A stretch of 64,000 nucleotides of DNA from an uncultured Lachnoanaerobaculum sp. (GCA_937925515.1 CALALP010000044.1:5184-69183); one strand, 5' to 3'; positions 4,198-20,407 are shown, counted from the first letter of the stretch. The notes: a model not told the origin generated them from the sequence alone. Numbers and translations: made by a program.

Positions 4198-7100
4198 CTA
4201 TCCCCTATTATTTGGAACTACAATTTTTTCTAGCTTACTATTTGCATCTTCAGACGGTTTCACACCAATTCCTACATTCATAGCATTGTCCTGAAGTCTA
4301 AATGGAACATTTGCGTAACTAAAGAATCTTTGAGAAGTAAATCTTCCACCAAATCTTATGCCGACTGCATTATCCTTAAAACTTTGTATAAATTTATAAC
4401 CTGAAACCTCACTTATTTCATTATCATTTAATTCAATAAAGAAATAGAAATTATAGTGATAGCCCTTATCGCCAACCAATGTTTCAAGCACCTTTAATGC
4501 GTTAAATGCCTTAGACTCCCTATTATATATTTCCTCTAAAAAGCCTCTTATATTTGGAATGAATACTGCAATATTTTTATAACCTGACATTGCCTCAAAG
4601 AAATCTTCATTTTCCAAGTTCTTAGCCATACATTCTTTCTTAGTTACAGCTCTAATTCCTGCCTCCTTATGTAAGGTATCCTTGGTAAAGTCATAAATTT
4701 TTTCAGCACTGTCTATATAATTTGCTGATATATTTAATGCTGTATTCTTAAATTCCTCAGAACCAATCTCTATGATATTTACATCTGCTTTCTTATCTGC
4801 AAATACATGCATTAAATGCCTCATATAAGTTGACTTACCACTTTTTTTACTTCCACTTACTACATAAGTAAGTAGATTGGTAAGTTCTATAAATGAATAG
4901 CTTGCATTTTCAGCATCATAACCTGTTGCAATAGTTCTTGGATTATCTAAAAGTAATTTATAGCTTTCCTCTTTTATATAATCTTCCCAAGTAGGATTTT
5001 CAGGGATTACAGGAACTTTTCTTGCTCCAATTCCACTATCAATTTTATTAATCGCCTTAATTCTTTCTTTGATATTAGAGTTTCTTTCAAAACTTCCCTC
5101 GCCCTTGCAAGCAATAGCAGTCTGAAATTCTATAATCTTTCCTGCAAAATGTACAAGTCCTCTACCTGCAACAGCACTTTCAGGATATACAGGCGTTCTT
5201 ACAACTCTCATTACATCGCTATATTGATAAATGTCAGACATTTCAAGTGAAATAGTGGTTCTAAAATTATCTGCAAGTCGCATAGGAAGTTCAGCATTGG
5301 CAAAGCTTGCAGCAGTAACTACTAAGTAAATACCATAGGAAATGCCCTCTTTAGCAACTCTTTTAATTATATCCTCAAACTTTTCATCAGTCTTTTCTCT
5401 AAAACCTGCATAATTGTCAATGACTATAACTATTGCAGGTAACTTTCCTAGACCATGTTCTACATAATCCCTAAAATTACTTGATGCCAATATTTTCTTT
5501 CTATCAGCAATTATTGTATTTAGCATTGTAAAGAACTTAGCTATTTTATCAATGTCTTCTTCCTTATCAGTCATAATGCCACCGACTTGTTTAGCATTTT
5601 CAAATACTGTCAATGCTTTAGAACTAAAATCAATTATATAGAAATTTATCTCTTCAGAGGAGTATTTATTTATAAAGGCATATATGGCAGTTTGTAAAAA
5701 TGTTGACTTACCTGTTGCAACTGTTCCACATATTGCATGATGCCCACCATTTAAGAGGTCTAATCTAATACTCATCTGATTTTGATTTTCAGGGTCATCT
5801 CCCTTGCCTACCATTACAAAAAGACTAAATTCATTTTCTGCATTTTCAAGTCTTTGCTTAAGTTCTAAGTCTATATATCCGTCAAGTTCATTTAAAGTTA
5901 TAAAGGTCGGAAGTACAGGCAACCACAAATGTATATCTCTGATATAGCCATGTTTTTTAGCTACTGAAAGCAAGTATTCATTAATAGCCTCAAGTTGGCT
6001 CTTTACCTTCATTTCAGGTAACTTAATCTTATTTTTTAATGCTAATTCCATAATAAAATCATACTTATCTTTAGTAGTGTTACTAAGTTTATATTCTTTA
6101 AAAATTTGTGCAAAATCTCTAAGCCTTGAATCATTATAAGAATTTCTAGGATAATCATTTTTAACTTTTGTTATATGGCTATAAACATTATCCAAAAATT
6201 CCTCACTATAACTATATTCGGATATAGCATTAGCCTGTATTTTAAGTTTACTTAATGTATCTTCCATTGCTAAGCAAATCAAGTTTATCCAGTTTTTCTT
6301 TGCTTTTTCTTGATGTAATATCTTGGTATAATTTCCTACTAAATCTACCTTTGCAGTAGAATTTAGAAGTTGTGCTACTACAAACTTAGCATTTCCAATG
6401 CTTTCATCATAAGTTGCTCCTGAATAACCTGATTGAAAAAGTTCAAAAAGTTCATCATTTCCAACTTGCAAAAAGCCTCGTCCTGCTTGTGTAAGATATG
6501 CTGCATCAGGTCTATGTAACATATCCATAGAATCTTGTCTATCTTGAACTCTAAGACATAATCTGAATTTAGAGTTTGACCATATATTGTCATCTACTGT
6601 ACCTGCCGGCTTTTGAGTAGATAGTATTAGATGAACCCCAAGACTTCGACCCACCTGTGCAACTGAGATAAGTTCACGCATAAAGTCAGGTTCTTCTCTT
6701 TTTAGCTCTGCAAACTCATCTATAATTATAAATATATGAGGTATAGGCTCTTTAACATCTCCATTTTTATAAAGGGTAGTATAGGCATTAATGTTATTTA
6801 CACCACATTCAGTAAACATTCTCTGTCGTCTTTTATTTTCAGACTTAATTGAAATCATGGCACGCTTTACTTGGTTTCCTGAAAGGTTTGAAATAGAGCC
6901 TATCATGTGTGGTAATTTCTCAAAAAGATTTGCCATACCACCACCTTTATAGTCTATGATAAAGAAACCAATGTCATCAGGACTATAATTTATAGCAAGA
7001 GAAAGCATATAAGTCTGCAAAGTTTCAGATTTTCCCGAACCTGTTGTACCTGCTACTAAGCCATGTGGACCATGATACCTTTCATGTATATCGAGATAAC

Positions 7101-9195
7101 AAGGTGTGCCACCATTTTTAACACCTATCATAGCTTTCATAGAGGCGACAATATTGGAACGCCTCCACCTCTCCTCTGCCTTAAGTTCTTCAGGTCTTGC
7201 AATATCATACATATCAAAAAAGCTTATTGCATTTGGTATTTCTCCTCCACTTTCAGCCTCTCCAAGCTCAATGTTAGCTAGTTTAATTGCAAATTCCTGT
7301 AAACTGTCCTCAGAATTTTCATCAAACTGTATATTAATTTTTTCAATATTTTCATCTTTAGTAGAATACATTCCTGAAAAGTCGGCATTTTTCTCTATAA
7401 TAAACTCACAACTGTTAGGCACTTCCTTATATGAATCTACTGCTATAACTGTTGAAAAACCTAGTTCTGAGCTATTTTCAGAGATATATTTGGAAATGAG
7501 TTCGCCTGATAAAATTTCCTTATCCAAAATGAAAATCACATAATAAGGTCGTCTACTTGCTTTTTCTTCCTCACTTCTAGTCCTTATAGTTTGACCTAGT
7601 TGATAGAAAATCTCTCCTGCCCCTGCTTTATCACTTGCAAAATATCTAATCTTCTTATCTTCTGACCAAAGATGAGGTAAATGTTTTACGAAATTCCATT
7701 CTTTTTCATCTGAAAGTTTATTTTTATCATAAGCAAATACTAGCTTTAAATCTGTATAACTGTTACTGCCTGCAAGCTGAATGATTAGGTTTTTTATAAG
7801 ACTTTTCCAAGCACCACGCTCTCCTATACAAGCTACAAAGCCTTTTTCCTTTAAATCAACGCCCATAGGCACAAATTTCATCATTTTATATTGTTCTTTG
7901 ATAGCCTTTGGCTTATCTGCCATATCATCATCTATCATAGAAAACTTTTCTTTTTGTACTTCTATATTTACAGGAAATGGTTCATCTCCCATACCAAGCC
8001 TACAAAAAAGGACATCTTTTTGCCTAAAGTTTCTATTCCAAAGTTTTTCCTCTGAAGTATCATATCTAAGCACCATATCAGCAGACGGATATTTTTCACG
8101 CTGTATTCTTGTATACTCATTAAATAAGCTATCTATATAAAGCTGTTTCTTTTTAAGATAATCTCCGTACTTAGCTCTTCTCTTTTCCTCGTCTTGTTTA
8201 TCCTTTTCTTTGGCATACTTAAAATTACGCCTTGCCCAATAAGTGCCTATACCAGCTGAAACTACTGCTGTAATCATTCCTGTCATCATAAATAGACTTC
8301 CACCCATAGAAGAACTCATATTAGCAGCGGCTACAGTAACGCCTGTACCAAGTAACATAGGAAGTGCCATAGTTATAGACGGGCCTATTATATTAAAAAG
8401 CGGTGTTTCCTGTGTATCTTTTGGATTTGGTGGTGGGTCTATGGTAATAACTTCATCATCAAGCTTAGGGATAATTCTAGGGGCTCTATGAAACATTTCC
8501 TTTTTAATATTAGCTTTTTTATCCCCTGACGGCACAAGTGCCTTTAACTCACTACTACTAAGCTCAGAAAGTTTTACCTCTCCTTTTTCAAGAAAACTTA
8601 CTGCTAATATATCTCCAAGATAAACAATAGTTAAACCGAAAGTTCTTATTGTATCAGCAAAGTTAAGTTCAGCTGTTTTCTCAAGTTTAATGTCATTTAA
8701 GAAAACTCCTTGACTATGAACATTTATAGTAGCTGATTTTCCATTTTTTATTAGGTCAAATGCTGTTTTTAATAAACTTTCATTTACACTTTTTGATAGA
8801 GAAGTATTAGTGTAATGTATATTAAAGCTATTATCAGTTCCAACCTTAAGGTTACTTCCATTTTCAAAGGCATATTTTTTAAATATAGCAAACTCTTCTT
8901 TTCTACTTCCTACTACAAGTTTTATTTCCTCTCCATAAGAAGTTTTTATATTAATGCTACCATTTCCACCAAGATCAATATACTCTAAAACCTCGCTGCT
9001 TATTTTAAAGGAATTAACTCCCTTAGGTCTATAAAGCCTCCAAGTCCCCTCAATATTCTCACAATTTAAGATAAGAGATTTATATAAATGAAAATCTTTT
9101 TCATTTATAACTATATTTGTTTCAAGTCTGACATCTTCTTGGAGTAAAACCTCCTTAAATGCCCAAGTATTATAGATGTAGATGTATTTATTCAT
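4198..9195 (-). CDS. essC: EssC/YukB FtsK-SpoIIIE family T7SS ATPase
   Basis: 1665 aa; three P-loop ATPase domains (GTTGSGKSE, GTVATGKST, SGSKKSGKST); TM segments after the N-terminal domain; locus context. Confidence 0.9.
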   Translation of the reverse strand: MNKYIYIYNTWAFKEVLLQEDVRLETNIVINEKDFHLYKSLILNCENIEGTWRLYRPKGVNSFKISSEVLEYIDLGGNGSINIKTSYGEEIKLVVGSRKEEFAIFKKYAFENGSNLKVGTDNSFNIHYTNTSLSKSVNESLLKTAFDLIKNGKSATINVHSQGVFLNDIKLEKTAELNFADTIRTFGLTIVYLGDILAVSFLEKGEVKLSELSSSELKALVPSGDKKANIKKEMFHRAPRIIPKLDDEVITIDPPPNPKDTQETPLFNIIGPSITMALPMLLGTGVTVAAANMSSSMGGSLFMMTGMITAVVSAGIGTYWARRNFKYAKEKDKQDEEKRRAKYGDYLKKKQLYIDSLFNEYTRIQREKYPSADMVLRYDTSEEKLWNRNFRQKDVLFCRLGMGDEPFPVNIEVQKEKFSMIDDDMADKPKAIKEQYKMMKFVPMGVDLKEKGFVACIGERGAWKSLIKNLIIQLAGSNSYTDLKLVFAYDKNKLSDEKEWNFVKHLPHLWSEDKKIRYFASDKAGAGEIFYQLGQTIRTRSEEEKASRRPYYVIFILDKEILSGELISKYISENSSELGFSTVIAVDSYKEVPNSCEFIIEKNADFSGMYSTKDENIEKINIQFDENSEDSLQEFAIKLANIELGEAESGGEIPNAISFFDMYDIARPEELKAEERWRRSNIVASMKAMIGVKNGGTPCYLDIHERYHGPHGLVAGTTGSGKSETLQTYMLSLAINYSPDDIGFFIIDYKGGGMANLFEKLPHMIGSISNLSGNQVKRAMISIKSENKRRQRMFTECGVNNINAYTTLYKNGDVKEPIPHIFIIIDEFAELKREEPDFMRELISVAQVGRSLGVHLILSTQKPAGTVDDNIWSNSKFRLCLRVQDRQDSMDMLHRPDAAYLTQAGRGFLQVGNDELFELFQSGYSGATYDESIGNAKFVVAQLLNSTAKVDLVGNYTKILHQEKAKKNWINLICLAMEDTLSKLKIQANAISEYSYSEEFLDNVYSHITKVKNDYPRNSYNDSRLRDFAQIFKEYKLSNTTKDKYDFIMELALKNKIKLPEMKVKSQLEAINEYLLSVAKKHGYIRDIHLWLPVLPTFITLNELDGYIDLELKQRLENAENEFSLFVMVGKGDDPENQNQMSIRLDLLNGGHHAICGTVATGKSTFLQTAIYAFINKYSSEEINFYIIDFSSKALTVFENAKQVGGIMTDKEEDIDKIAKFFTMLNTIIADRKKILASSNFRDYVEHGLGKLPAIVIVIDNYAGFREKTDEKFEDIIKRVAKEGISYGIYLVVTAASFANAELPMRLADNFRTTISLEMSDIYQYSDVMRVVRTPVYPESAVAGRGLVHFAGKIIEFQTAIACKGEGSFERNSNIKERIKAINKIDSGIGARKVPVIPENPTWEDYIKEESYKLLLDNPRTIATGYDAENASYSFIELTNLLTYVVSGSKKSGKSTYMRHLMHVFADKKADVNIIEIGSEEFKNTALNISANYIDSAEKIYDFTKDTLHKEAGIRAVTKKECMAKNLENEDFFEAMSGYKNIAVFIPNIRGFLEEIYNRESKAFNALKVLETLVGDKGYHYNFYFFIELNDNEISEVSGYKFIQSFKDNAVGIRFGGRFTSQRFFSYANVPFRLQDNAMNVGIGVKPSEDANSKLEKIVVPNNRG

Positions 9196-9232
9196 ATTTT
9201 ACTCCGTTTGTATTTTTGCAAATGATAGTGCT

Positions 9233-10561
9233 TTACTTTTTCCTATAAGTCGTAGTACCACCTTTTTCTCCAGTATCAAAAGTAGCCTCTACTGTAAATA
9301 CTCCATTTGATATAGTGCCATTCCAAGTTATAGTTGAACCATTCTTTTTGATAGTTATTTGATTTCCTTTAACTTTCCATTTAAAAGGCTCTACATAATC
9401 TGAATATTTATTATATTCATGTCCTGTTCCGTCCTCTTTTAGTATTTTCCCCTTGCCTTCAATTTCCTTATCAATATTCCCCTCAGCATCAGTTGAATCT
9501 ATCAACTCATAATCCCCTGCAATATCCTCTATTGTAATTTCAGTTTCTTTACTTCTTTTACGCCTCCTTGTTTCCTCGGAATTATCAGAATCATCAGAAT
9601 TATCTGCAACATAATTATCACTATTATTTTTTATTCTATCTTTTGCTACAAAGACTAATGCAAAAATCAAAATTATACATATCGGAATTGAAACAAGCAA
9701 AGCCTTAGAACCTTTTTTATTTCCACTTGAAACCTTAATAGTACTACTTCTACCATTATCTTTTGTACCCTCAAGTGCATTCAACATTTTATCTGCACTC
9801 TGATACCTTTTTTGCTGACTTTGAGAAGTAGCCTCATCTACTATCCTTTCAAGAAATTGTGGAAGTTCCGGATTTATTTTCCTTATAGGTTTTATCTCAT
9901 AAGGTGGCTCAGAGGGATTCTTTCCTGTGAGCATATAGTACAGGATAGTACCTAAACTATATATATCAGATGTTGCATCTATCTTTACATCTATTGACTT
10001 TGATAAACGCTCAGGAGATATATAGCCTCTAATACCACTTCGCATTACATAATTTTGATAGTCATTATTATAACTATATACAGAGCCAAAACCTAAAAGC
10101 ACCACTCTACCGTCAAGCTGTACTATAATATTATCCGGAATAAGATTTTCACAATAATAAGGCTTTTCCTGATTATGTAGATATGAAAGCACTGAACAAA
10201 GTTGCTTAGTATAAGATACAGCATTTTCTGCTAATAAAGCACCATTTGCTTGAAGATATGTAGAAAGCTTATTTCCCTCTACATACTCCATTACAATATA
10301 CACAAAATCTCCCTCTTGAATCACTTCATAAAATATAGGAAGATTTCTATGCCTAAAATTTGCCAATTTCCTAATATCTTCAACAAAATAATTCCAAGTA
10401 ATCGGACTTCTGTCATTTAAGCTTTCTCTACCAATCTCTTTGATTGCAAGTTGCCTATTATTCATTTCATTAAAAGCAAGATATACAGTATTGCTACTGC
10501 TTTTATCAAGTTGCTTTAATATTCTATATCCACCATTTAATAAACTTCCCTCTTTTATCAT
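9233..10561 (-). CDS. essB: EssB/YukC T7SS membrane protein with pseudokinase N-domain
   Basis: 442 aa; N-terminal protein-kinase-like fold (YRILKQL...LAIKEI), a single central TM (LLVSIPICIILIFALVFVA), extracellular C-domain; immediately upstream of essC. Confidence 0.7.
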   Translation of the reverse strand: MIKEGSLLNGGYRILKQLDKSSSNTVYLAFNEMNNRQLAIKEIGRESLNDRSPITWNYFVEDIRKLANFRHRNLPIFYEVIQEGDFVYIVMEYVEGNKLSTYLQANGALLAENAVSYTKQLCSVLSYLHNQEKPYYCENLIPDNIIVQLDGRVVLLGFGSVYSYNNDYQNYVMRSGIRGYISPERLSKSIDVKIDATSDIYSLGTILYYMLTGKNPSEPPYEIKPIRKINPELPQFLERIVDEATSQSQQKRYQSADKMLNALEGTKDNGRSSTIKVSSGNKKGSKALLVSIPICIILIFALVFVAKDRIKNNSDNYVADNSDDSDNSEETRRRKRSKETEITIEDIAGDYELIDSTDAEGNIDKEIEGKGKILKEDGTGHEYNKYSDYVEPFKWKVKGNQITIKKNGSTITWNGTISNGVFTVEATFDTGEKGGTTTYRKK

Positions 10562-10581
10562 ATAAGCCCCCTATCTACTCC

Positions 10582-11431: not shown

Positions 11432-11953
11432 TTATTTTAATATCTTCTTTATGCCACTTTGTAAATCAGAAAAACTACTCTTAGGTTTGGTTATCCACAT
11501 TTTACTAATATCAAAATTAGTTCTAATTAGATGTTCTTTTAAATTTTTACATTTAATAAATTCGCTTTTAAAATCTTTAGGACTCTTACAATTAATCAAG
11601 CTTTCAATTTTATTACTAATATTACAACACCTACATAATTCATCTTCAAAATTATTTACTTGTGGTAGTATTATAACCTCTTTTATATAAGATTTTTTCT
11701 CTAAAAATTTAATATTACTATTTAGTATATCAGCACTACAAGTATCTGTATCAAACACTAAAACAATTATAGTATTCTTTTTCAAATTTATTAAATGGCT
11801 ATTTTTTAGTTGTTCTTGAACTACATTAAAACGCTTAATTTTACCTGCTTGTATTAAATCTAGTTCATTATGAAGAACCTTGATAAATATTTCCTCAGTT
11901 TTTCCCTCAACATAATATTCATAGATAACATTCTTTTTACTTACATTTCTCAT
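11432..11953 (-). CDS. Small TOPRIM-like protein (DUF4276/RloB-like), putative nuclease partner of the upstream ATPase
   Basis: About 173 aa; N-terminal VEGKTEE (conserved Glu), then LVFDTDT (DxD) about 50 residues later, the TOPRIM pattern. RBS AAGGAAG before the ATG at 11953; overlaps the ATPase stop by 17 nt. Confidence 0.6.
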   Translation of the reverse strand: MRNVSKKNVIYEYYVEGKTEEIFIKVLHNELDLIQAGKIKRFNVVQEQLKNSHLINLKKNTIIVLVFDTDTCSADILNSNIKFLEKKSYIKEVIILPQVNNFEDELCRCCNISNKIESLINCKSPKDFKSEFIKCKNLKEHLIRTNFDISKMWITKPKSSFSDLQSGIKKILK

Positions 11954-13049
11954 AATCAATATACTTCCTTATGTGTTCTACATTTGGAGAGTGTAAAAAA
12001 ACATCATTATCAATAGCATTCTTAAGTGAATCTGTTGATTTTTTTAACTTATCAGAGGCTGAAACACACCTAATTTTTACATCGCAACTGTCCTCTTCTT
12101 TTATCAAAAAAGTAAATGCATGTTTTGGTAAATTTATATTTGCAATGTCTAAATTATGAGTTGTTATAAATAACTGTTCATTGTATTGTAAATTAGCTAT
12201 CATAACATTTATTAATTCTCTTTCTATATCACTATGTACATACACAAACTTTTCATCTAAATAATAGAAACCATTTTTATGCTCAATAAGTGCAAATAAA
12301 AAGTTAGCAATATCTATACCGTCTTTTGTACCACTTGACAACATTCTTTCATCTAAAAGTCTTCCATTTTGAATATAAATTTTACTTTTACAAGTTTCTA
12401 TGGCATAGGTATCATTGTCATGGTCAATTTCTTTAATCCCAATAATTGAACTATCTAAGGTTTTTAGTACATCTTCTAATACTTTAAAATATTTGTCATC
12501 TGTATCTTCAATTTCTAAATCTTTTATATTATCTCTCTCCGGATAACTAAACCTCCAACCAAATCTATGTATATCTCTTAAATCGCTATTTGCACTAATG
12601 GATTCTATTCTTTTAGAACAAGTTTCATAACTATCATTCTTCCATATATTAATCATTTTTACTTCTAATTGTATATCATCTAAAGTATATCCAAACTCAT
12701 CATTAATAATTGGAATATTCACACTAACTCTAAAAAACTTTTCCTCATTAGTTGCAAAGTCAATAATAAAACTAGATTCATTTGATTTATCTATAATTAA
12801 ATCTACTAGTTTATCCACATTCCTTTTAGTAATAAAATTAAATATATTCATAAGGACTTTCCCTAGAGATGTCTTTCCGGTAGCATTTGTTCCAAATAAT
12901 ATATTAACCTTTTTGTATCTAAAATTTTCAAATCCTTTCAGATGTTCACCCTCAACCATACTATCCACTATTTTTCTTGGATAAGTAAAATTAATATGAA
13001 AATCATTGAATTGCAGTAAATTATTTACTTTTAAATCTAGCACTATCAT
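11937..13049 (-). CDS. AAA_21/ABC-like ATPase (RloA/AbiLi/OLD-N/AriA-like)
   Basis: Walker A GTNATGKTS, signature-like LSSGTKDGIDIANF, Walker B FYYLDE, H-loop ITTHN. Best start is ATG at 13049 (MIVLDLK) preceded by AGGAGG; the ORF-track start at 13112 lacks an RBS. Confidence 0.75.
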   Translation of the reverse strand: MIVLDLKVNNLLQFNDFHINFTYPRKIVDSMVEGEHLKGFENFRYKKVNILFGTNATGKTSLGKVLMNIFNFITKRNVDKLVDLIIDKSNESSFIIDFATNEEKFFRVSVNIPIINDEFGYTLDDIQLEVKMINIWKNDSYETCSKRIESISANSDLRDIHRFGWRFSYPERDNIKDLEIEDTDDKYFKVLEDVLKTLDSSIIGIKEIDHDNDTYAIETCKSKIYIQNGRLLDERMLSSGTKDGIDIANFLFALIEHKNGFYYLDEKFVYVHSDIERELINVMIANLQYNEQLFITTHNLDIANINLPKHAFTFLIKEEDSCDVKIRCVSASDKLKKSTDSLKNAIDNDVFLHSPNVEHIRKYIDYEKCK

Positions 13050-13186
13050 ATTATACCTCCTATGTATAAATTCCGATTTTGAGAAGTTATACATATTAAG
13101 TATAAAATACAATTATATTTTTTTCAATACTTTTATGGTATGGTATGTTTAAGAATATATAATTCTTTATCCTAGCAAACATAAAA

Positions 13187-13226
13187 AAAGAATGATTCAC
13201 ATATACATGAACCATTCTTTTAGTTT
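13187..13226 (-). terminator. Rho-independent terminator downstream of TasA-like gene
   Basis: Minus-strand reading: about 12-bp stem AAGAATGGTTCA/TGAATCATTCTT (one mismatch), loop TGTATATG, then TTTTTTTATG. Confidence 0.5.
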
Positions 13227-13314: not shown

Positions 13315-14346
13315 TTATGGTTGTGGCTTTTGAGGTGTTTTTGCGTTTCCATTCTGCTTTTCAAGAATGTTTGGCTTAGCCTCTTTCTTTCCTATATTGA
13401 ACTGATCCCAGTTGAATTGAATGTCGATATGAGCGATTTGATTCTGAGAATCTGAATCACCTCTAGTTTCAATCATCTTGTCAGCTGTACCTGTTGTATA
13501 CTTACCGTCTAAATCAGGATCCATAGCTATACCAAGGTATAAGTCCATTCTACGGTTTGTCTCAGGGCTTGTATAGATTTCAGCATCCTTGATTGCATCC
13601 TTAATCTTCTTAGCATCTAAATTCTTGAGTGCTGATAATCTTAAGAAATCAACTCCACCTACTCTGAATACATCTTCTTGCTTAGCACCAAGGCTCTTAA
13701 CTAATGCAAATGCTGCATCCTCTCCTGTGATTCCGTCGCCTTCTTTATGAACATAGATAGCAACACCGAGTAACTTCTCAACTGTATCTGTGCTAAGTCC
13801 ACCATTAGCAGCCTTTGAACTTACAATGAACTTGATGTTGCTTAACTTAGCTGCAACAGTTCCAAGGCTTACGATGTCTGTACGGAATGCTTGTGCATAA
13901 CCAGGATAAATGTTGTTAATATCAACACCTATGTTGTGGCTACCGTTTGTATTTGTTGTAAGATAAGGTCCAACCTGTCTCTTGATAGGCTCAGCATCCT
14001 TAAGTTCAGCTGAGAAATCAATATTGTTGTATTTCTTAGCACGATCTTTGTATTGTTGAATAGAACCGTCCTTAGCAATCTTGTTATAATTGCTTGTTCC
14101 TCTTAAGAAGAAATCTGAAGGAACATAACCCTTATCGCCAACTCCGTCAACTATTGACCAACCGTGATTCTCATCACCATATTGTGCATAAAGACCTAAG
14201 TCTACGAACTGTACATCAAAATCTCCTGTGGTTGCCTTTGACTGGATATTAAGTGTCTTTGTCCATGCTGCATAACCTGTACCTGTTAATACCATTGCAA
14301 GTGCTAATGCACCAGCGATAATACTCTTCTTGCTTGCTTTTCTCAT
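13315..14346 (-). CDS. Secreted TasA/camelysin-like protein with SipW-cognate-type signal peptide
   Basis: 343 aa; N-terminus ...ALAMVLTGTGYAAWTKTL, compare B. subtilis TasA ...GGGTWAAFNDIKS. Confidence 0.55.
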   Translation of the reverse strand: MRKASKKSIIAGALALAMVLTGTGYAAWTKTLNIQSKATTGDFDVQFVDLGLYAQYGDENHGWSIVDGVGDKGYVPSDFFLRGTSNYNKIAKDGSIQQYKDRAKKYNNIDFSAELKDAEPIKRQVGPYLTTNTNGSHNIGVDINNIYPGYAQAFRTDIVSLGTVAAKLSNIKFIVSSKAANGGLSTDTVEKLLGVAIYVHKEGDGITGEDAAFALVKSLGAKQEDVFRVGGVDFLRLSALKNLDAKKIKDAIKDAEIYTSPETNRRMDLYLGIAMDPDLDGKYTTGTADKMIETRGDSDSQNQIAHIDIQFNWDQFNIGKKEAKPNILEKQNGNAKTPQKPQP

Positions 14347-14489
14347 TTTTTCTCCTATCCTTGATTAGTATAATACGAATCTAAGTTTTTTTATAATTTT
14401 TTTGCCAAATCGATTTGCTATAATTAATTTTACCATAAAACTAATAAATAACATTGTACTTTAGTATTATTTTCATATACTCCTTTAGT

Positions 14490-15866
14490 TTATCTTTTTT
14501 CTCTTGATACATAAACTATATCCTTTGCATAAAGATAGAAACTACCCTCCACAGGGAGTTCTTTTTCATCAAGGCTATATAAAACAGGTTGTCTTATTTC
14601 ATCGGCAATCATAAACAAATCCTCTATTTCAGCCACTTCCACTAAAGTTCTATCTTCAAAACTTGGTAGTACAACTACATTTACCATTCTACTCATATTC
14701 TTTTTAAGAGATTTCTTTAACTTAAGTTCATATTTTTCTTCTTCATTAGGTACTTTTGTAAATAATAAAATATATACTACTAAAGCTACTCCTATTATAA
14801 ATAATACTACTCCTGCAAAGAAAAATAGAGGGCTATTTTTAACTACTTCCTCAGTGGTTGTATTTACTTGTTCAACTTCATCTTTATCTTCAGGCTTTAA
14901 TATTGAATAATATGGGTTACTATCAAGTATATTCATAGTTACTTTTGATTCAAAACTTTTATCAGCAGGCGAAACTTCATCATTTACATGGATTGTACCT
15001 CCAAATACAAGGTAAAATTCCTTATCAGTAGCACCTCCAAGTATTTCCTCAGCCTTAGTAACTTCTTCTAAATATTGAGTGGGCTTAATTTCAATGTTTT
15101 CATCAACAACTACATTAGTATCAGAGTTTTTTGTTATATTTGAACTCTTAAGTCTAAATCTCTTTTCATATATTGGAGTTTTGCTTTCAGCATCTTTTTG
15201 AAATCCCTCAATAACAGCATCTATATAATAATCTCCACTAAAATTAAGTGTTTTACTTGTTTTAAGTTGTGAACTAAAGTTTACTGAAATAAAATCAGTA
15301 ATTTTCTTTGAATAAATCTTACCCTCATCGAGATACTCGTCTGATATTAATTCATTTCCCAAGAGTTTAACTTTATATTTGGAAGTATTTTTAAATGTGT
15401 ATGTATATAACAAGTTACTTTTTTCTTCTGTTTTAGACTTACTTCCAAAGTAAAAACATACTCCTGCAACTCCCATAAACAATACAACAGAAAAAATTAT
15501 GCCTAAAATCCTGGTAAGACTTGAAATTGCTTTTTTTTCAAAGTTAAATTTTTGACTTAACTTTTCTTTGTTTTCACTATCTGCATTATCTGCATTTTCT
15601 TTATCTATAATAGTTTCTTGTTTTGCAACATCTTCTTTATTTAAATCTTCTTTATTTAAGTCTTTTTCACCTGAAATAACATTTTCTTTATCTGAAACAA
15701 TGTTTTCTGCATCTGAGACAACATTTCCTTTATCTGAAATAATATCTTCTTGCTTATCTAAATTTTCCCCCTGACTTGTATCTTCAGGGTGTATTTTATC
15801 TGACTCTATTTTATCAACTGTATCTACATTTTTATTTTGTTTCTTCTTTTTTCCCATAATCCACAA
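14490..15866 (-). CDS. Membrane protein of the SipW/TasA-like locus, 2 TM segments with a large extracytoplasmic domain and a low-complexity acidic N-terminus
   Basis: 458 aa; TM segments near residues 118-140 and 345-368; N-terminus rich in D/K/E/N repeats; 35-nt overlap with the SipW gene. Confidence 0.4.
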   Translation of the reverse strand: MWIMGKKKKQNKNVDTVDKIESDKIHPEDTSQGENLDKQEDIISDKGNVVSDAENIVSDKENVISGEKDLNKEDLNKEDVAKQETIIDKENADNADSENKEKLSQKFNFEKKAISSLTRILGIIFSVVLFMGVAGVCFYFGSKSKTEEKSNLLYTYTFKNTSKYKVKLLGNELISDEYLDEGKIYSKKITDFISVNFSSQLKTSKTLNFSGDYYIDAVIEGFQKDAESKTPIYEKRFRLKSSNITKNSDTNVVVDENIEIKPTQYLEEVTKAEEILGGATDKEFYLVFGGTIHVNDEVSPADKSFESKVTMNILDSNPYYSILKPEDKDEVEQVNTTTEEVVKNSPLFFFAGVVLFIIGVALVVYILLFTKVPNEEEKYELKLKKSLKKNMSRMVNVVVLPSFEDRTLVEVAEIEDLFMIADEIRQPVLYSLDEKELPVEGSFYLYAKDIVYVSREKR

Positions 15867-17037
15867 CTCCTTCCGGTATGTCTGATTGTTTTTTTGTCAT
15901 CATAATAGGTATTCCTATCTTGGGTATTACTGCTATGTATTTTCCATTTACCTCTGAAATTTCAACTTCATCATCATCGATAGAAAAATTATTATCTCCT
16001 TTAGTTATAAATTTAATATTTCCTGCCTCATCTTTTTTAATATCCACTATTCTATGTGTTATAACAATGCTATCTCTATAAAAATTTATAACTGTTCCCT
16101 TAGTAAAGCTTTCTATTTCTTCCTGATTTTTAGGTTTTTGTATTAGAATGACATCTCCGGGCTTAATTTTAGGTAACATACTACCTGTAAGAATGACTGA
16201 CGGATAGATTGGGAATACTCCAACGCAAAACCACGAAAACATTATTGTACCAAAAAGTCCCACTACATATCCAACTGTAACCTTTTCATCTCTTACTCTT
16301 CTCGTTCCGTCTAAAACTTGTGAGGTTTCATACATAATCATTGTATAAATAGCAGGAAATACTATTCCTATTGCCGCCTCTGCAAGCCAATTCAAATCAG
16401 GTAAATATGGAAACATATGTATAAATAATTCTTTTACAAGTATATAAGAAATTGAAGAAATTGCTCCTCCATAATAGGATAAAGTAGTAAGCAGTATACT
16501 ATCCATAATTGCAGGAACTGCATATTGTGCTAGGTATATGACTATATCTTTCTTTTCCTTAGCTTGACTAATGTTTCTCAATGAAATATCAGATAATAAA
16601 ATCACTATAAAAACCACAAAAAAATACCATAGCTTTTTCTTTTTCCAACTTGCTGCTATGGCATATTCTCTTATTTTCTCCCTTGCTATAAGAATGGGAA
16701 TAATTGAAATAAAGGTGTTAAATAATCCCTCCAAAGATAAATCATAGGGCGAGAGTTTTATTTGTGATAAAATTGCACCTACAACATACTTTATTGCAAT
16801 AAAAATAAACGCTCCTGAGGCTGCTGAAAAAGCTATCCTTGAGTGCATTACCACCCTACCTGAAACATAAAGTTTAGGTAGGGTAATTAAAATGGCAAAT
16901 AATGTAATCCAATAAACCATTACTATATATGGATACTCTATGATAAACTTTGAAATGATTGGAATTTTAGATATACCAAACAAAATGACAAATATAAAGG
17001 CATATATAATATAATATTTATTTTTCTTATACTTCAT
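15832..17037 (-). CDS. sipW: SipW-type (archaeal/ER-type) signal peptidase I fused to an N-terminal polytopic membrane domain
   Basis: C-terminal 130 aa carry box B SVILTGSMLPKIKPGDVILIQK (catalytic Ser) and box D VITHRIVDI (His). The N-terminal ~270 aa contain ~8 predicted TM helices of unknown family. Confidence 0.7.
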   Translation of the reverse strand: MKYKKNKYYIIYAFIFVILFGISKIPIISKFIIEYPYIVMVYWITLFAILITLPKLYVSGRVVMHSRIAFSAASGAFIFIAIKYVVGAILSQIKLSPYDLSLEGLFNTFISIIPILIAREKIREYAIAASWKKKKLWYFFVVFIVILLSDISLRNISQAKEKKDIVIYLAQYAVPAIMDSILLTTLSYYGGAISSISYILVKELFIHMFPYLPDLNWLAEAAIGIVFPAIYTMIMYETSQVLDGTRRVRDEKVTVGYVVGLFGTIMFSWFCVGVFPIYPSVILTGSMLPKIKPGDVILIQKPKNQEEIESFTKGTVINFYRDSIVITHRIVDIKKDEAGNIKFITKGDNNFSIDDDEVEISEVNGKYIAVIPKIGIPIMMTKKQSDIPEGVVDYGKKEETK

Positions 17038-17041
17038 AGCA

Positions 17042-17389
17042 TTACTCTTTTGTTGTTTCTACTTCAATAGAACTTGTTTCAATAGAACTTGTTTCACTAG
17101 AGCTTATTTCACTAGAGCTTATTTCACTAGAGCTTATTTCACTAGAACTTATTTCACTAGAGCTTATTTCACTAGAACTTTCTTTATTAATACTTTCTTG
17201 TTCAATAACTTCAGTTGCTTGGCTCTCTGTTTCTTCCTCGCTTGTTTCTTCCTCTTCTTTAACAACTATATTATCCATAGTATATACAACAGGAACATTG
17301 ACTTTCATATCAAGCCTTTGATTCCAGTACGCATAAGAAATCCCTGTAATAGATAAAACAAAAACTAAAATTGCTACTGATAATCTCAT
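17042..17389 (-). CDS. Small secreted acidic protein with SipW-cognate-type signal peptide and tandem SSEIS repeats
   Basis: 115 aa; N-terminus LSITGISYAYWNQRL; Glu-rich centre; C-terminal (SSEIS)n encoded by the 15-bp tandem repeat. Confidence 0.5.
   Translation of the reverse strand: MRLSVAILVFVLSITGISYAYWNQRLDMKVNVPVVYTMDNIVVKEEEETSEEETESQATEVIEQESINKESSSEISSSEISSSEISSSEISSSEISSSETSSIETSSIEVETTKE
17066..17182. repeat. 15-bp tandem repeat, ~7.8 copies (AATAGAACTTGTTTC x2 then ACTAGAGCTTATTTC variants)
   Basis: Read directly from the sequence; in-frame within the CDS 17042..17389. Confidence 0.85.
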
Positions 17390-17397
17390 AGCTCCTC

Positions 17398-18126
17398 CTA
17401 TTTATTCTCATTTGATTTGTTTGACTGTTCTAAGTATAAATCAAGTTTACCTTTATAAGTTACCATTATTCCCTCTTGCTCAGAACTTAAATCTGAAACA
17501 ATGCTTAAATCTTCTATTTTATCCTCTAATTTAAGTTCCTTTGGAAAAGTTAAAACCTTTTCTTTGCTTTCATCTGTTAAACCAAGATAAATGTGTCCTA
17601 TATAGTCATCATTTTCCTTTGTTATACTTCTAAAAACATCAAATTTTATTTTTTCTTTAAATTCCTTTGGTGCATTTTCATATTCATAGACTGTTTCGCC
17701 TAAACTAAGATAAGTCTTTAAAGGTTCAAGTTCTAATGTTTTTTTGTCTTTTTTTGTAAAGTCTACATCATAAGCATAGATGTCCATAGGAGGCTTATTG
17801 CTCTTATTTTTTATAGGATATGATATTTTTATATATTTTCCCTCAATTAAAGGTTGTAGAGGCACTCCTGAATTAAAAGTTATGACAGCACTATTATCAT
17901 TATTTTCAAGTTCTGCTTTTAATTCAAAGCCCTGATATGAAGTATTGCTTTCATCAACTATTTCAGAGGTATAGCCCTCTTCCCCAAAACCAAACTTAAA
18001 AGTATCTGTACTTAACTTAGCTGAAACCTTTTGATCTCTTGACCATTTTGCATAACTTGAACCTGCAGCAAATAAGGTCATTACAATAACCAATGTTACT
18101 ATATACTTCAAAAATCCTTTTCTCAT
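17398..18126 (-). CDS. Secreted TasA-like protein with SipW-cognate-type signal peptide
   Basis: 242 aa; N-terminus LFAAGSSYAKWSRDQ. Confidence 0.5.
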   Translation of the reverse strand: MRKGFLKYIVTLVIVMTLFAAGSSYAKWSRDQKVSAKLSTDTFKFGFGEEGYTSEIVDESNTSYQGFELKAELENNDNSAVITFNSGVPLQPLIEGKYIKISYPIKNKSNKPPMDIYAYDVDFTKKDKKTLELEPLKTYLSLGETVYEYENAPKEFKEKIKFDVFRSITKENDDYIGHIYLGLTDESKEKVLTFPKELKLEDKIEDLSIVSDLSSEQEGIMVTYKGKLDLYLEQSNKSNENK

Positions 18127-18166
18127 TTTCCTACCTCTTTCTAATTATATTAAGTTAGTAAAACTA

Positions 18167-18790
18167 TTATCTTGTAATATTATACTTATCTGCAAATATA
18201 ACTGCATTTACTCTATTATTTAATGATAATTTGCCTAAGATATTGCTAATATGTTTTTTTACAGTTCCCTCTGAAATCATAAGATTTTCAGCAATCATCG
18301 CATTGGTATAGCCCTCTCTTAAAAGAGCTAAAACTTCTATTTCTCTTTCAGTTAAACTTTTAATAAGTTTCTCTTCCTCAGACATACTATTTACACTCTC
18401 TAAAAGACTTTGGGAATAAAATTTACCTCCTTTATCAACTACATTTAAACCATATACAAGTTCTTCTATAAAGGCATCCTTTAAAACGTAGGCATCTACT
18501 CCTAGTTCTCTTGCCCTTAAAAAATCACTCTTTTTAGAGGAACTTGTTATCATAAAAATTTTCATTTTGTGTTGAGCTTTTTTTATTTTCTCTAAAAAAT
18601 CAAATCCACTTTCATTGTTTAGATATAAGTCTAAAAAAGCCATTTCAATATCATTCTTTTTTGTCATCTCTAGTGCTTGTGCTACTGAACTTGTAACTAA
18701 TATGTCCATTTCAGGTCTACAACTTTTTAATATTGTAACAAGCCCTTGTGCCACAACCGGATGATCGTCCAAAATCAAGTTCATAACCAA
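18167..18790 (-). CDS. NarL/LuxR-family response regulator
   Basis: Receiver domain (LDDHP..D..L) plus C-terminal LuxR HTH (EREIEVLALLREGYTNAMIAENLMISEGTVKKHISNIL). Confidence 0.85.
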   Translation of the reverse strand: MVMNLILDDHPVVAQGLVTILKSCRPEMDILVTSSVAQALEMTKKNDIEMAFLDLYLNNESGFDFLEKIKKAQHKMKIFMITSSSKKSDFLRARELGVDAYVLKDAFIEELVYGLNVVDKGGKFYSQSLLESVNSMSEEEKLIKSLTEREIEVLALLREGYTNAMIAENLMISEGTVKKHISNILGKLSLNNRVNAVIFADKYNITR

Positions 18791-18799
18791 ATCTCCTTA

Positions 18800-20407
18800 T
18801 CACTCTTGGGGTAATGTCAGTCTTACTGCAACTCCTCCTGCTTTTATCGTTTCAATCAAAATACTGCCCTTTATAAGGTTAGCCATTCTTTTCATGTTTC
18901 TTAATCCATTACCACCTACTTTTTCTTTTTTATTTTTAAAGCCACAACCGTCATCAACAATATTGACCTTTACTTTCTTATCTTCACAAGAAATATAAAC
19001 ATCTATATTGTGTGCATTTCCATGACGTACAGCATTATTTATAGCCTCACAAACAACTCTATATATAACAATTTTCTTAGATGACTGAAGTAAATCTATG
19101 TCATCATCCATTTTAAAATTAATATTTACACTATTAAGCTTTGAAACTTCGCTTATATAAAGAGAAATTCTTTTTCTGAAAAACTCCTCACTTTCATCTT
19201 CAAATCTATTGCCATAGATTGTTTCCCTTAATTCAGTCATAGTAAGTTGAGTAGATTTATTTAGCTCCTTAATTTTACTTTTAATAGATTCATCTTCTAA
19301 GGACTCTAAATTTAATTCAAGACTTTTAAGACTGCAAGAAATACCGAAAAGCTTTTGTATTGTAGTATCATGAATTTCATCTGCAATCCTATTTTTCTCT
19401 TCACTACTGATATATTTTTCCATATGGTCATGCATATCCATATTTTTAAATATTATCTCAATAAGTCTTAAATAGAATTTTTCTTTTTCAGTGTATTCTT
19501 CCTCAATTTTCTTTCTTACAATTATTCCACATATTGAAACTTCATCTCCTATTGGAATAATTTCATAAATTTCAGAATCAATCCTCTTTACAATTTTTTC
19601 AAATTTACGACTATCTAAACAATATGCTGAAATGTATTGCACAAAATACGAAACTTTGTCAGACTCAATGTCAGAACTTGAAACTTCAACTATCGTACCC
19701 TCTACATCTAATTTCATTAATATAAGCCCCTTTGTAGCTATTGTCTTTTTTAAAATATCAGATAATAGGCTAACTATCTTCTCCGGGTCTTTCATTGCTA
19801 ATATATCAAATGTTTCATAAATATTAGACAACTGTAACAAGGCATATTCACTTCTTTCATTTTCATAACTTATTTTCTTATATAACTGTGAAAGTTCCTC
19901 TCTCTGCCCTCTAATTTTATCAAAATTAATTTTTAAGATAAAGAAACTTCCAAGAGTCATACCGACACCTGCAACTATGTTTAGCTTAAGCCTTAGTATT
20001 GTATCAAAATCTGATATACCTGACCATGCACAAAATAAACACCATGCACTTCCAAAAAATATAAAAGAGAAATCTTCCTTTCTGTTCATTACAACAAGCA
20101 AACAACAAACGTAATACCATAAATATGTACTTGAAAAACCACCACTGGTATATACAAATATACCATAGGCAAAAAGCTCAAATACAAGTGTAAGTCTTGT
20201 TAAAACAACCTGTTCCTCAAGAGCATCATACATATAATTTCCTAAAAAACAAGCTATACCCATACCTATTATTATTAGGAAATTTTGTATGGCTATTTGA
20301 GAATAAAAATCTTCTACCAAAATATACAGTATAGAAGTAAATATATAAACAGCTATTCTATAATTCTTACATAAATCAATAAAACTATCACTATCACTAA
20401 TTCTCAC
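18800..20407 (-). CDS. Membrane sensor histidine kinase (HisKA_3/NarL-partner type)
   Basis: N-terminal multi-TM sensor; H-box EIHDTTIQKLFG; HATPase_c (NNAVRHGNA ... DDGCGF ... GNGLRNM). Confidence 0.8.
   Translation of the reverse strand: MRISDSDSFIDLCKNYRIAVYIFTSILYILVEDFYSQIAIQNFLIIIGMGIACFLGNYMYDALEEQVVLTRLTLVFELFAYGIFVYTSGGFSSTYLWYYVCCLLVVMNRKEDFSFIFFGSAWCLFCAWSGISDFDTILRLKLNIVAGVGMTLGSFFILKINFDKIRGQREELSQLYKKISYENERSEYALLQLSNIYETFDILAMKDPEKIVSLLSDILKKTIATKGLILMKLDVEGTIVEVSSSDIESDKVSYFVQYISAYCLDSRKFEKIVKRIDSEIYEIIPIGDEVSICGIIVRKKIEEEYTEKEKFYLRLIEIIFKNMDMHDHMEKYISSEEKNRIADEIHDTTIQKLFGISCSLKSLELNLESLEDESIKSKIKELNKSTQLTMTELRETIYGNRFEDESEEFFRKRISLYISEVSKLNSVNINFKMDDDIDLLQSSKKIVIYRVVCEAINNAVRHGNAHNIDVYISCEDKKVKVNIVDDGCGFKNKKEKVGGNGLRNMKRMANLIKGSILIETIKAGGVAVRLTLPQE

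Follow-up and report, generated by a model that had tools for sequence, protein, structure and literature searches.

A candidate TasA-superfamily fibre cassette with a polytopic signal peptidase and a DUF5305 partner in Lachnoanaerobaculum and other Clostridia

TasA-type fibres form the protein scaffold of Bacillus biofilms, and the TasA superfamily has lately been extended to archaea and to Clostridium perfringens. Here we describe a locus from an uncultured Lachnoanaerobaculum sp., found on a stretch of DNA of 64,000 nucleotides (GCA_937925515.1 CALALP010000044.1:5184-69183; this whole stretch is referred to as the window). At positions 13315-20407, on the minus strand, seven co-oriented genes encode a sensor kinase, a response regulator, three exported proteins of 343, 242 and 115 residues, a signal peptidase and a membrane protein of the DUF5305 family. 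We conclude that these genes probably encode, as a self-contained unit, an extracellular fibre system belonging to the TasA superfamily, a reading that we hold with fair but not full confidence.

The described systems closest to this locus differ from it in instructive ways. In the Bacillus subtilis tapA-sipW-tasA operon the signal peptidase is SipW, whereas the peptidase found here is polytopic and is not a SipW equivalog; TapA has no counterpart, a DUF5305 gene and an in-cassette two-component regulator are present instead, and similarity to Peptidase_M73 is limited to residues 2-47 of some orthologs of the 343-residue protein. The sipW-bsaABCRSD genes of C. perfringens likewise form a clostridial operon with a SipW-type peptidase, secreted TasA-like and accessory proteins and a two-component system of their own, BsaS/BsaR (BsaRS), which is needed for sipW-bsaA expression. 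The gene order differs, however, BsaA is a protein of ~23 kDa, and the von Willebrand factor A (vWA) protein BsaC is encoded there where DUF5305 is encoded here. The haloarchaeal tafi (TafA/C/E, TafD, TafG) have in common with our locus the pairing of a peptidase with a DUF5305 protein and the presence of a transcription regulator. In tafi, strand donation links the major subunit with an adapter and with a tip subunit, an arrangement that the present one would parallel; the tafi subunits, in contrast, are exported by the Tat pathway and belong to DUF1102-like families, and TafD has four helices.

The AbpX loci of bacteria and archaea share more of the architecture. A January 2026 preprint reports that the AbpX-linked signal peptidase I (SPase I) has ten membrane helices in both domains of life, and that DUF5305, sometimes fused to SPase I, is a putative accessory (bioRxiv 10.64898/2026.01.04.697558). 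An SPase I with about ten helices and an adjoining DUF5305 gene are both found in our cassette. Judged by sequence, the two kinds of locus also appear to share a plan in which one major subunit is accompanied by several that are minor or form the tip, with a donor strand at the N-terminus and an aromatic residue at mature position 2, and a histidine kinase often lies in the neighbourhood of AbpX genes. We therefore regard the locus architecture as shared with bacterial AbpX loci. The proteins are another matter. The AbpX major subunit has 163 residues when mature, an isoelectric point (pI) of about 4 and 15% Asp/Glu, whereas the mature 343-residue protein has ~317 residues, helical insertions, a pI of 5.9 and 13% Asp/Glu. 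The acidic residue at position 4 of AbpX is missing from all three substrates here; the cassette has no LPXTG or SLH anchor gene, and it does have a small protein made of a strand and an acidic tail. By sequence, then, the cassette lies outside the SipW equivalog, outside PF12389 by its own score and outside TIGR04090, and does not demonstrably belong to the AbpX protein family. Its general design has been described before, and orthologs of its proteins have been flagged by NCBI annotation; what is new is the candidate major subunit, which is larger and belongs to an uncharacterised family, a minor subunit resembling a fibre head, and a conserved strand-plus-acidic-tail small protein.

The features of the locus, in the direction of transcription, are as follows; each open reading frame (ORF) is present as given.

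18800..20407, minus strand: sensor histidine kinase, 535 residues, with HisKA_3 and HATPase_c domains
18167..18790, minus strand: NarL/LuxR-type response regulator, 207 residues, with REC domain and GerE helix-turn-helix
17398..18126, minus strand: exported protein, 242 residues, with signal peptide
17042..17389, minus strand: exported protein, 115 residues, with signal peptide
17063..17180, minus strand: 15-bp tandem repeat, 7.9 copies, inside the gene for the 115-residue protein (Tandem Repeats Finder score 180)
15832..17037, minus strand: polytopic signal peptidase I of endoplasmic reticulum (ER)/archaeal type, 401 residues (TIGR02228)
14490..15866, minus strand: DUF5305 membrane protein, 458 residues when read from TTG (PF17231)
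14347..14489, minus strand: AT-rich spacer of 143 bp upstream of the gene for the 343-residue protein, ending in an AGGAGA ribosome-binding site
13315..14346, minus strand: exported protein, 343 residues, with signal peptide
13186..13221, minus strand: terminator-like hairpin, a 16-bp stem followed by a T-run, ~95 nt past the stop codon of the gene for the 343-residue protein

The 343-residue protein is the candidate major fibre subunit. Its chain runs from a signal peptide, with a predicted cut after TGYA, through a segment AWTKTLNIQSKATT that we read as a donor strand, to a core that resembles the TasA jelly roll and carries additional helical insertions. The best structural match found by two methods is the TasA fibre, and the fold matches place fibre formers first (TasA, the thread subunit and AbpA), consistent with a jelly roll of the TasA superfamily. 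The amphipathic strand W28-T40 lies outside the predicted monomer fold, and the predicted local distance difference test score (pLDDT) is below 50 for residues 1-39. When the profile of the family was compared with chains in the PDB, the only matches were to AbpX (9sj2_C, E 0.04; 9rhp_A, E 0.5). The profile segment WtdtlnvttkattGdldv aligns to mature residues 2-21 of AbpX, and YPGyaqaf..nvGdiaakl aligns collinearly with YPGAEVNV..NVGTIPA; the match is suggestive, although not significant, and AbpX is absent among the Foldseek matches to the PDB that were listed. Within the family the donor strand has N33, and E59 is invariant, but an invariant lysine was not found, so that an N-E-K isopeptide triad like that of BsaA is not established. 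A role as a camelysin-type metalloprotease was considered and set aside because the HExxH motif was not found; the protease label of M73 is, according to the literature, likely to be a misidentification.

What the three exported proteins share is their N-terminus. All are Sec-type precursors in which a signal peptide is followed by G-x-x-Y-A and then by x-W-(T/S/N)-x-x-L-x-hydrophobic. The predicted cuts separate LTGTGYA from AWTK in the 343-residue protein, ITGISYA from YWNQ in the 115-residue protein and AAGSSYA from KWSR in the 242-residue protein, with tryptophan at mature position 2 in every case. Every ORF of at least 50 residues in the window was scanned for [YWF][AGS]x[WF][TSNK] downstream of a hydrophobic stretch, and the only coding-strand matches were these three genes, bearing out the original prediction, made from the sequence alone, of three substrates with a common motif after the hydrophobic stretch. 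That prediction had also named the tryptophan in place of phenylalanine as a difference from the canonical operon; it is not unusual, since AbpX too has tryptophan at mature position 2. The motif is kept as G-T-G-Y-A-Y-W-T-D-x-L in 75 orthologs of the 343-residue protein and as G-x-x-Y-A-x-W in 40 orthologs of the 242-residue protein, and about 40 small proteins of the 115-residue type carry Y-W-(T/K)-D-x-L after the cut. Such conservation in orthologs, together with conserved gene order, shows that the motif is more than chance. It runs, moreover, for 12-20 residues beyond the presumed cut, through a strand of alternating hydrophobic and polar residues and then a strand of the form T-T-G-x-F-x-V-x-F. 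Alignment with hhalign shows homology between the 343- and 242-residue families over their first 60-69 residues (probability 98.4%, E 6e-15) and not over the remainder.

Beyond this module the two smaller exported proteins look quite different from the candidate major subunit. The 242-residue protein, a candidate tip or minor subunit, has a signal peptide with a predicted cut after SSYA, then a segment KWSRDQKVSAKL, again read as a donor strand, and then a compact β-sandwich that is apparently complete, resembles viral receptor-binding heads and is not TasA-like. The TasA jelly-roll fold is found in the 343-residue protein and not in the 242-residue one. A word-indexed homolog search with the 242-residue protein returned only the protein itself, and its family was found by a full HMMER search. 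In the 115-residue protein a signal peptide, with a predicted cut after ISYA, is followed by an amphipathic strand of ~23 residues (YWNQRLDMKVNVPVVYTMDNIVV) and an acidic Ser/Glu repeat tail; a globular domain is not evident, the mature pI is 4.05, and no above-threshold Pfam or NCBIfam family was found. With little beyond the donor-strand-like segment, this protein is a candidate cap or nucleator. Small ORFs equivalent to it occur in ~40 of 56 loci, with the consensus YWTDKLxxKxxxxxxYxxxIxV and tails of ~27% Asp/Glu. The units of its tail, SSEIS, are encoded by the 15-bp repeat at 17063-17180, and metagenome contigs with an identical 343-residue protein have 115-type products of 100, 105, 110 or 115 residues; the repeat is therefore polymorphic in copy number between strains. 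Five loci (L009, L012, L013, L060 and L061, from Stomatobaculum and two Lachnospiraceae metagenome-assembled genomes (MAGs)) have no small ORF of this type between the 242-type gene and the peptidase gene. In these the 242-type gene is longer, at ~305-370 residues, which may reflect fusion or loss.

Several observations weigh against a fibre of the TasA superfamily. None of the 343-, 242- and 115-residue proteins reaches any TasA, camelysin, TIGR04088 or BsaA threshold in Pfam or NCBIfam, and none matches PF12389 (Peptidase_M73). The model for SipW-dependent signal peptides, TIGR04088 (34 positions, cutoff 19 bits), fails to match the three N-termini even at E <= 10. The best NCBIfam match for the N-terminus of the 343-residue protein, to the BsaA family (TIGR04090), is sub-threshold, at 14.7 bits against a cutoff of 60, and covers only the N-terminal 43 positions, and the AbpX match of its family (E 0.04) is, as noted, below significance. 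The exported proteins proved negative for LPXTG motifs and the cassette for SLH domains, so that neither type of cell-wall anchor is present. Cleavage at the predicted sites (G/S-Y-A) would obey the ordinary -3/-1 rule as well, which means that their sequence is also compatible with cleavage by a housekeeping SPase I; we infer dedicated processing from linkage. Finally, mature position 4 is Lys, Gln and Arg in the 343-, 115- and 242-residue proteins, respectively, and in none of them acidic. This position is Asp in 72 of the 75 orthologs of the 343-residue protein and in most orthologs of the small protein, and the closest relatives share the change, with Asn in the 343-residue protein and Gln in the small protein. 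The subclade to which the window belongs thus has, in its 343-residue protein, Ala for Tyr at +1 and Lys or Asn for the near-universal Asp at +4. In AbpX the acidic residue at position 4 helps to bind calcium at the interface of strand and groove and is tied to calcium-mediated assembly (bioRxiv 10.64898/2026.01.04.697558). Since it is gone here, assembly in the window's clade may, speculatively and by analogy, be independent of calcium.

The orthologs show the other side of this picture. Three orthologs of the 343-residue protein score at or above the TIGR04088 cutoff (P0024, 20.4 bits; P0047, 19.8 bits; P0009, 19.0 bits), with a fourth, P0057, at 17.9 bits, and several have already been named 'SipW-dependent-type signal peptide-containing protein' by NCBI. 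Peptidase_M73 matches 23 of 51 at E <= 1, in their N-terminal part; three of these, checked singly, are above the gathering threshold, over residues 2-47 only. The profile searches on which the original prediction could be judged are therefore negative for the window's own proteins and positive for some orthologs. Its broader claim of a TasA-like fibre locus stands on the fold of the 343-residue protein, on orthologs that match TIGR04088 and M73 and on synteny, and is weakened by the failure of all three window proteins to reach any threshold.

Could the three proteins instead stay unpolymerised and act in secreted form or at the surface, for example as soluble adhesins, lectins or wall-associated proteins, processed by a dedicated peptidase for which the shared module is a recognition and cleavage signal only? 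The complete, non-TasA sandwich of the 242-residue protein, with its likeness to viral receptor-binding heads, would suit such a function, as would the absence of the acidic position-4 residue that is linked to assembly in AbpX. The amphipathic strand, however, is conserved for ~12-20 residues past the cut, far beyond what a peptidase should need; the fold of the 343-residue protein matches fibre formers before anything else; and a protein that consists only of a strand and a disordered tail, as the 115-residue protein does, makes poor sense as a stand-alone adhesin. We consider this explanation improbable, and prefer that of a polymerising TasA-superfamily fibre.

A scan that took one genome per species returned 75 loci. 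The full order of kinase, regulator, 242-type gene, (small protein), peptidase, DUF5305 and 343-type gene is present in 48 of them (45 scored as full, together with L067, L070 and L072). A further 14 have the core of peptidase, DUF5305 and 343-type gene; in these, either the contig is truncated or the kinase has diverged beyond detection. Another eight lie on contigs too short to judge. Hosts of the cassette are found in the Lachnospiraceae (Lachnoanaerobaculum, Oribacterium, Stomatobaculum and Johnsonella), Peptostreptococcaceae, Filifactoraceae, Oscillospiraceae, Syntrophomonadaceae and Tissierellia. Relative to the window, the regulator has a median identity of 51% and the 343-residue protein one of 49%; the peptidase follows at 39%, the kinase at 36%, DUF5305 at 30% and the 242-residue protein at 26.5%. 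The cassette is thus real and widely conserved in low-GC Clostridia. The remaining five loci (L025, L048, L051, L058 and L075) are stand-alone paralogs of the 343-type gene, which lack the peptidase cassette and occur besides a full cassette elsewhere in the genome; their hosts are Lachnoanaerobaculum saburreum, Filifactor alocis, Filifactor villosus and a Syntrophomonadaceae MAG. The species of the window itself is missing from the one-genome-per-species collection, where the best match is 65% identical, yet recurs in human metagenome assemblies, one of them labelled as Human Microbiome Project (HMP); its exact proteins were found only in metagenome contigs.

The co-oriented peptidase had been predicted to be of ER/archaeal type with SGSM-like and HR boxes, and so it proves. 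Residues 278-384 score 62.0 bits against TIGR02228 (cutoff 51.85), and the catalytic residues S286 (in LTGSM), H328 (in THR) and D348 (in GDNN) are invariant in 37 homologs, so that it is not of the Ser/Lys dyad type. Its hydropathy points to ~9 membrane helices, then the catalytic domain and one C-terminal helix, ~10 helices in total, which the original prediction had missed. The membrane domain (residues 1-255) has no Pfam match at E <= 10, yet residues of polar type within it, P97-Y98-D99, E120, R123, P210, P213 and W217, are invariant in the same 37 homologs, which suggests that the polytopic domain serves more than membrane anchoring. A total of 756 homologs were found, and those listed range from ~300 to 435 residues, mostly 390-430, most of them covering 85-100% of the query.

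The gene directly 3' of the peptidase gene in most of the 61 loci that have both, and overlapping it in the window, encodes a DUF5305 protein (PF17231, E 2.2e-25). Translation likely starts at the ATG at 15857, giving 455 residues, rather than at the TTG at 15866. An acidic, low-complexity cytoplasmic N-terminus is followed by helix 1 (~118-140), an extracellular domain, helix 2 (~347-370) and a cytoplasmic C-terminal domain. The 21/42-bp repeats at 15671-15751 encode an acidic low-complexity cytoplasmic extension of ~110 residues that has no counterpart in most orthologs, and the length of the product varies between strains, from 455 to 460 residues. The original prediction had placed this protein in the position of TapA. 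With two hydrophobic segments and no Y-A-x-W module it is not TapA-like, the 115- and 242-residue proteins being likelier candidates for that function, and by analogy it is proposed to be an accessory of the signal peptidase, as others have proposed for DUF5305 (PMC11821415, PMC12337348, bioRxiv 10.64898/2026.01.04.697558), the tafi papers making the same proposal for TafD with TafG (PMC11821415, PMC12337348).

These properties also bear on whether the locus is simply orthologous to the Bacillus tapA-sipW-tasA operon and has diverged from it, the 458-residue protein being the TapA-like anchor or nucleator. The logic of an ER-type peptidase acting with a TasA-fold substrate is the same, and orthologs of the 343-residue protein do show an N-terminal Peptidase_M73 match. 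The peptidase, however, reaches only 62 bits against the Bacillus SipW equivalog NF046067, for which the cutoff is 190, and is therefore not a SipW ortholog; it has ~ten helices, compared with two. The supposed TapA belongs to DUF5305, a family whose archaeal and bacterial members pair with peptidases of this kind and in some cases are fused to them, and the 343-residue sequence itself fails PF12389. Such orthology is in our view very improbable and largely refuted. A gene content that differs from the canonical operon had been anticipated correctly, and the difference now has a definite form in DUF5305 and the in-cassette regulator.

The kinase and regulator complete the cassette that we take to encode a TasA-superfamily fibre. 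HisKA_3 (E 2.5e-10) and HATPase_c (E 4.5e-10) are found by Pfam in the kinase, and Response_reg (E 1.4e-20) and GerE (E 1.2e-19) in the NarL-like regulator. Together with synteny across many genera, these domains support the dedicated NarL-type two-component system that had been proposed. The N-terminal ~165 residues of the kinase are hydrophobic and apparently span the membrane several times with short loops, and are followed by a cytoplasmic linker and the two kinase domains; its N-terminal 336 residues have no Pfam match at E <= 10. Kinase and regulator fall below all equivalog cutoffs (NarL, LiaS, DegU and others). Because LiaS is nonetheless the NCBIfam model that the kinase matches best (E 3e-26, far under the cutoff) and the sensor looks intramembrane, one might suppose a LiaS/LiaR-type cell-envelope stress module, with the small secreted proteins as unrelated cargo or as stress effectors. 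All such matches lie far under the equivalog cutoffs, however, and genes of LiaF/LiaI type are absent. In the 48 full loci the genes for kinase and regulator lie alongside those for the peptidase, DUF5305 and the TasA-like set, and BsaRS has a similar placement within its operon. We give a stress module of this kind very little credence.

How, then, might the proposed TasA-superfamily fibre be made? After export by Sec, the dedicated peptidase, with DUF5305 as accessory, would cut the precursors after the Ala of Y-A, exposing the N-terminal amphipathic strand x-W-(T/S/N) with its tryptophan at mature position 2. The 343-residue protein would then polymerise head-to-tail, each subunit inserting its strand into the groove of its neighbour, in the manner of TasA, BsaA, AbpX and tafi. 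The other two proteins, a strand with a self-contained sandwich (242 residues) and a strand with an acidic disordered tail (115 residues), could only donate a strand, and would thus be placed at the end of the fibre where a groove stands empty, the former perhaps as tip or adhesin and the latter as cap or nucleator. The operon would be switched on by the HisKA_3 kinase, of intramembrane type, and the NarL-type regulator, a parallel with BsaS/BsaR that concerns the role in the operon and not the domain families. These elements can be joined further, in a reading of the cassette as a distinct and self-sufficient machine for fibre assembly. In it the polytopic domain of the peptidase (with PYD, E120, R123 and P-x-x-P-x-x-x-W) and DUF5305 would together serve as a platform on which cleavage is coupled to polymerisation, the 115-residue protein would represent a novel type of cap or nucleator for fibres, and assembly would be calcium-independent. 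This we offer tentatively, thinking it rather unlikely to be right as a whole.

If the fibre reading is true, a system that is related to those described, yet architecturally different, is present in many human oral and gut Clostridia, among them Filifactor alocis, Peptoanaerobacter stomatis, Lachnoanaerobaculum, Oribacterium, Stomatobaculum and Johnsonella. Biofilm formation and co-aggregation matter in periodontal disease, and to our knowledge nothing is known of the matrix proteins of these organisms. The cassette is compact, with seven genes that include its own regulator, which makes it suited to heterologous reconstitution, and it would offer a way to probe the roles of the ten-helix peptidase and DUF5305, which are so far proposals in the literature.

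Within the cassette the intergenic gaps are tiny or negative, the 143-bp spacer at 14347..14489 being the sole sizeable one, and the hairpin at 13186..13221 likely marks the end of the transcription unit. A promoter scan gave 50 sites, compared with 44 expected from shuffles in this AT-rich DNA, with none above background, the spacer included. Rfam gave no matches in the whole window, and hence no riboswitch near the locus. The whole 64 kb shows a strongly negative GC skew, and the minus strand carries nearly all of the long ORFs.

Further along the same strand, at 4198-10570, are genes for a 445-residue Ser/Thr protein kinase and a 1666-residue protein with FtsK/SpoIIIE ATPase domains, possibly a type VII secretion ATPase similar to EssC. 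Directly beyond the cassette terminator, at 11432-13112 and also on the minus strand, overlapping genes encode a 391-residue AAA_21 ATPase (AbiEii-like) and a 175-residue OLD-like TOPRIM protein. These look like a split OLD-family pair of defence type, and the pair is found in all four same-species contigs examined.

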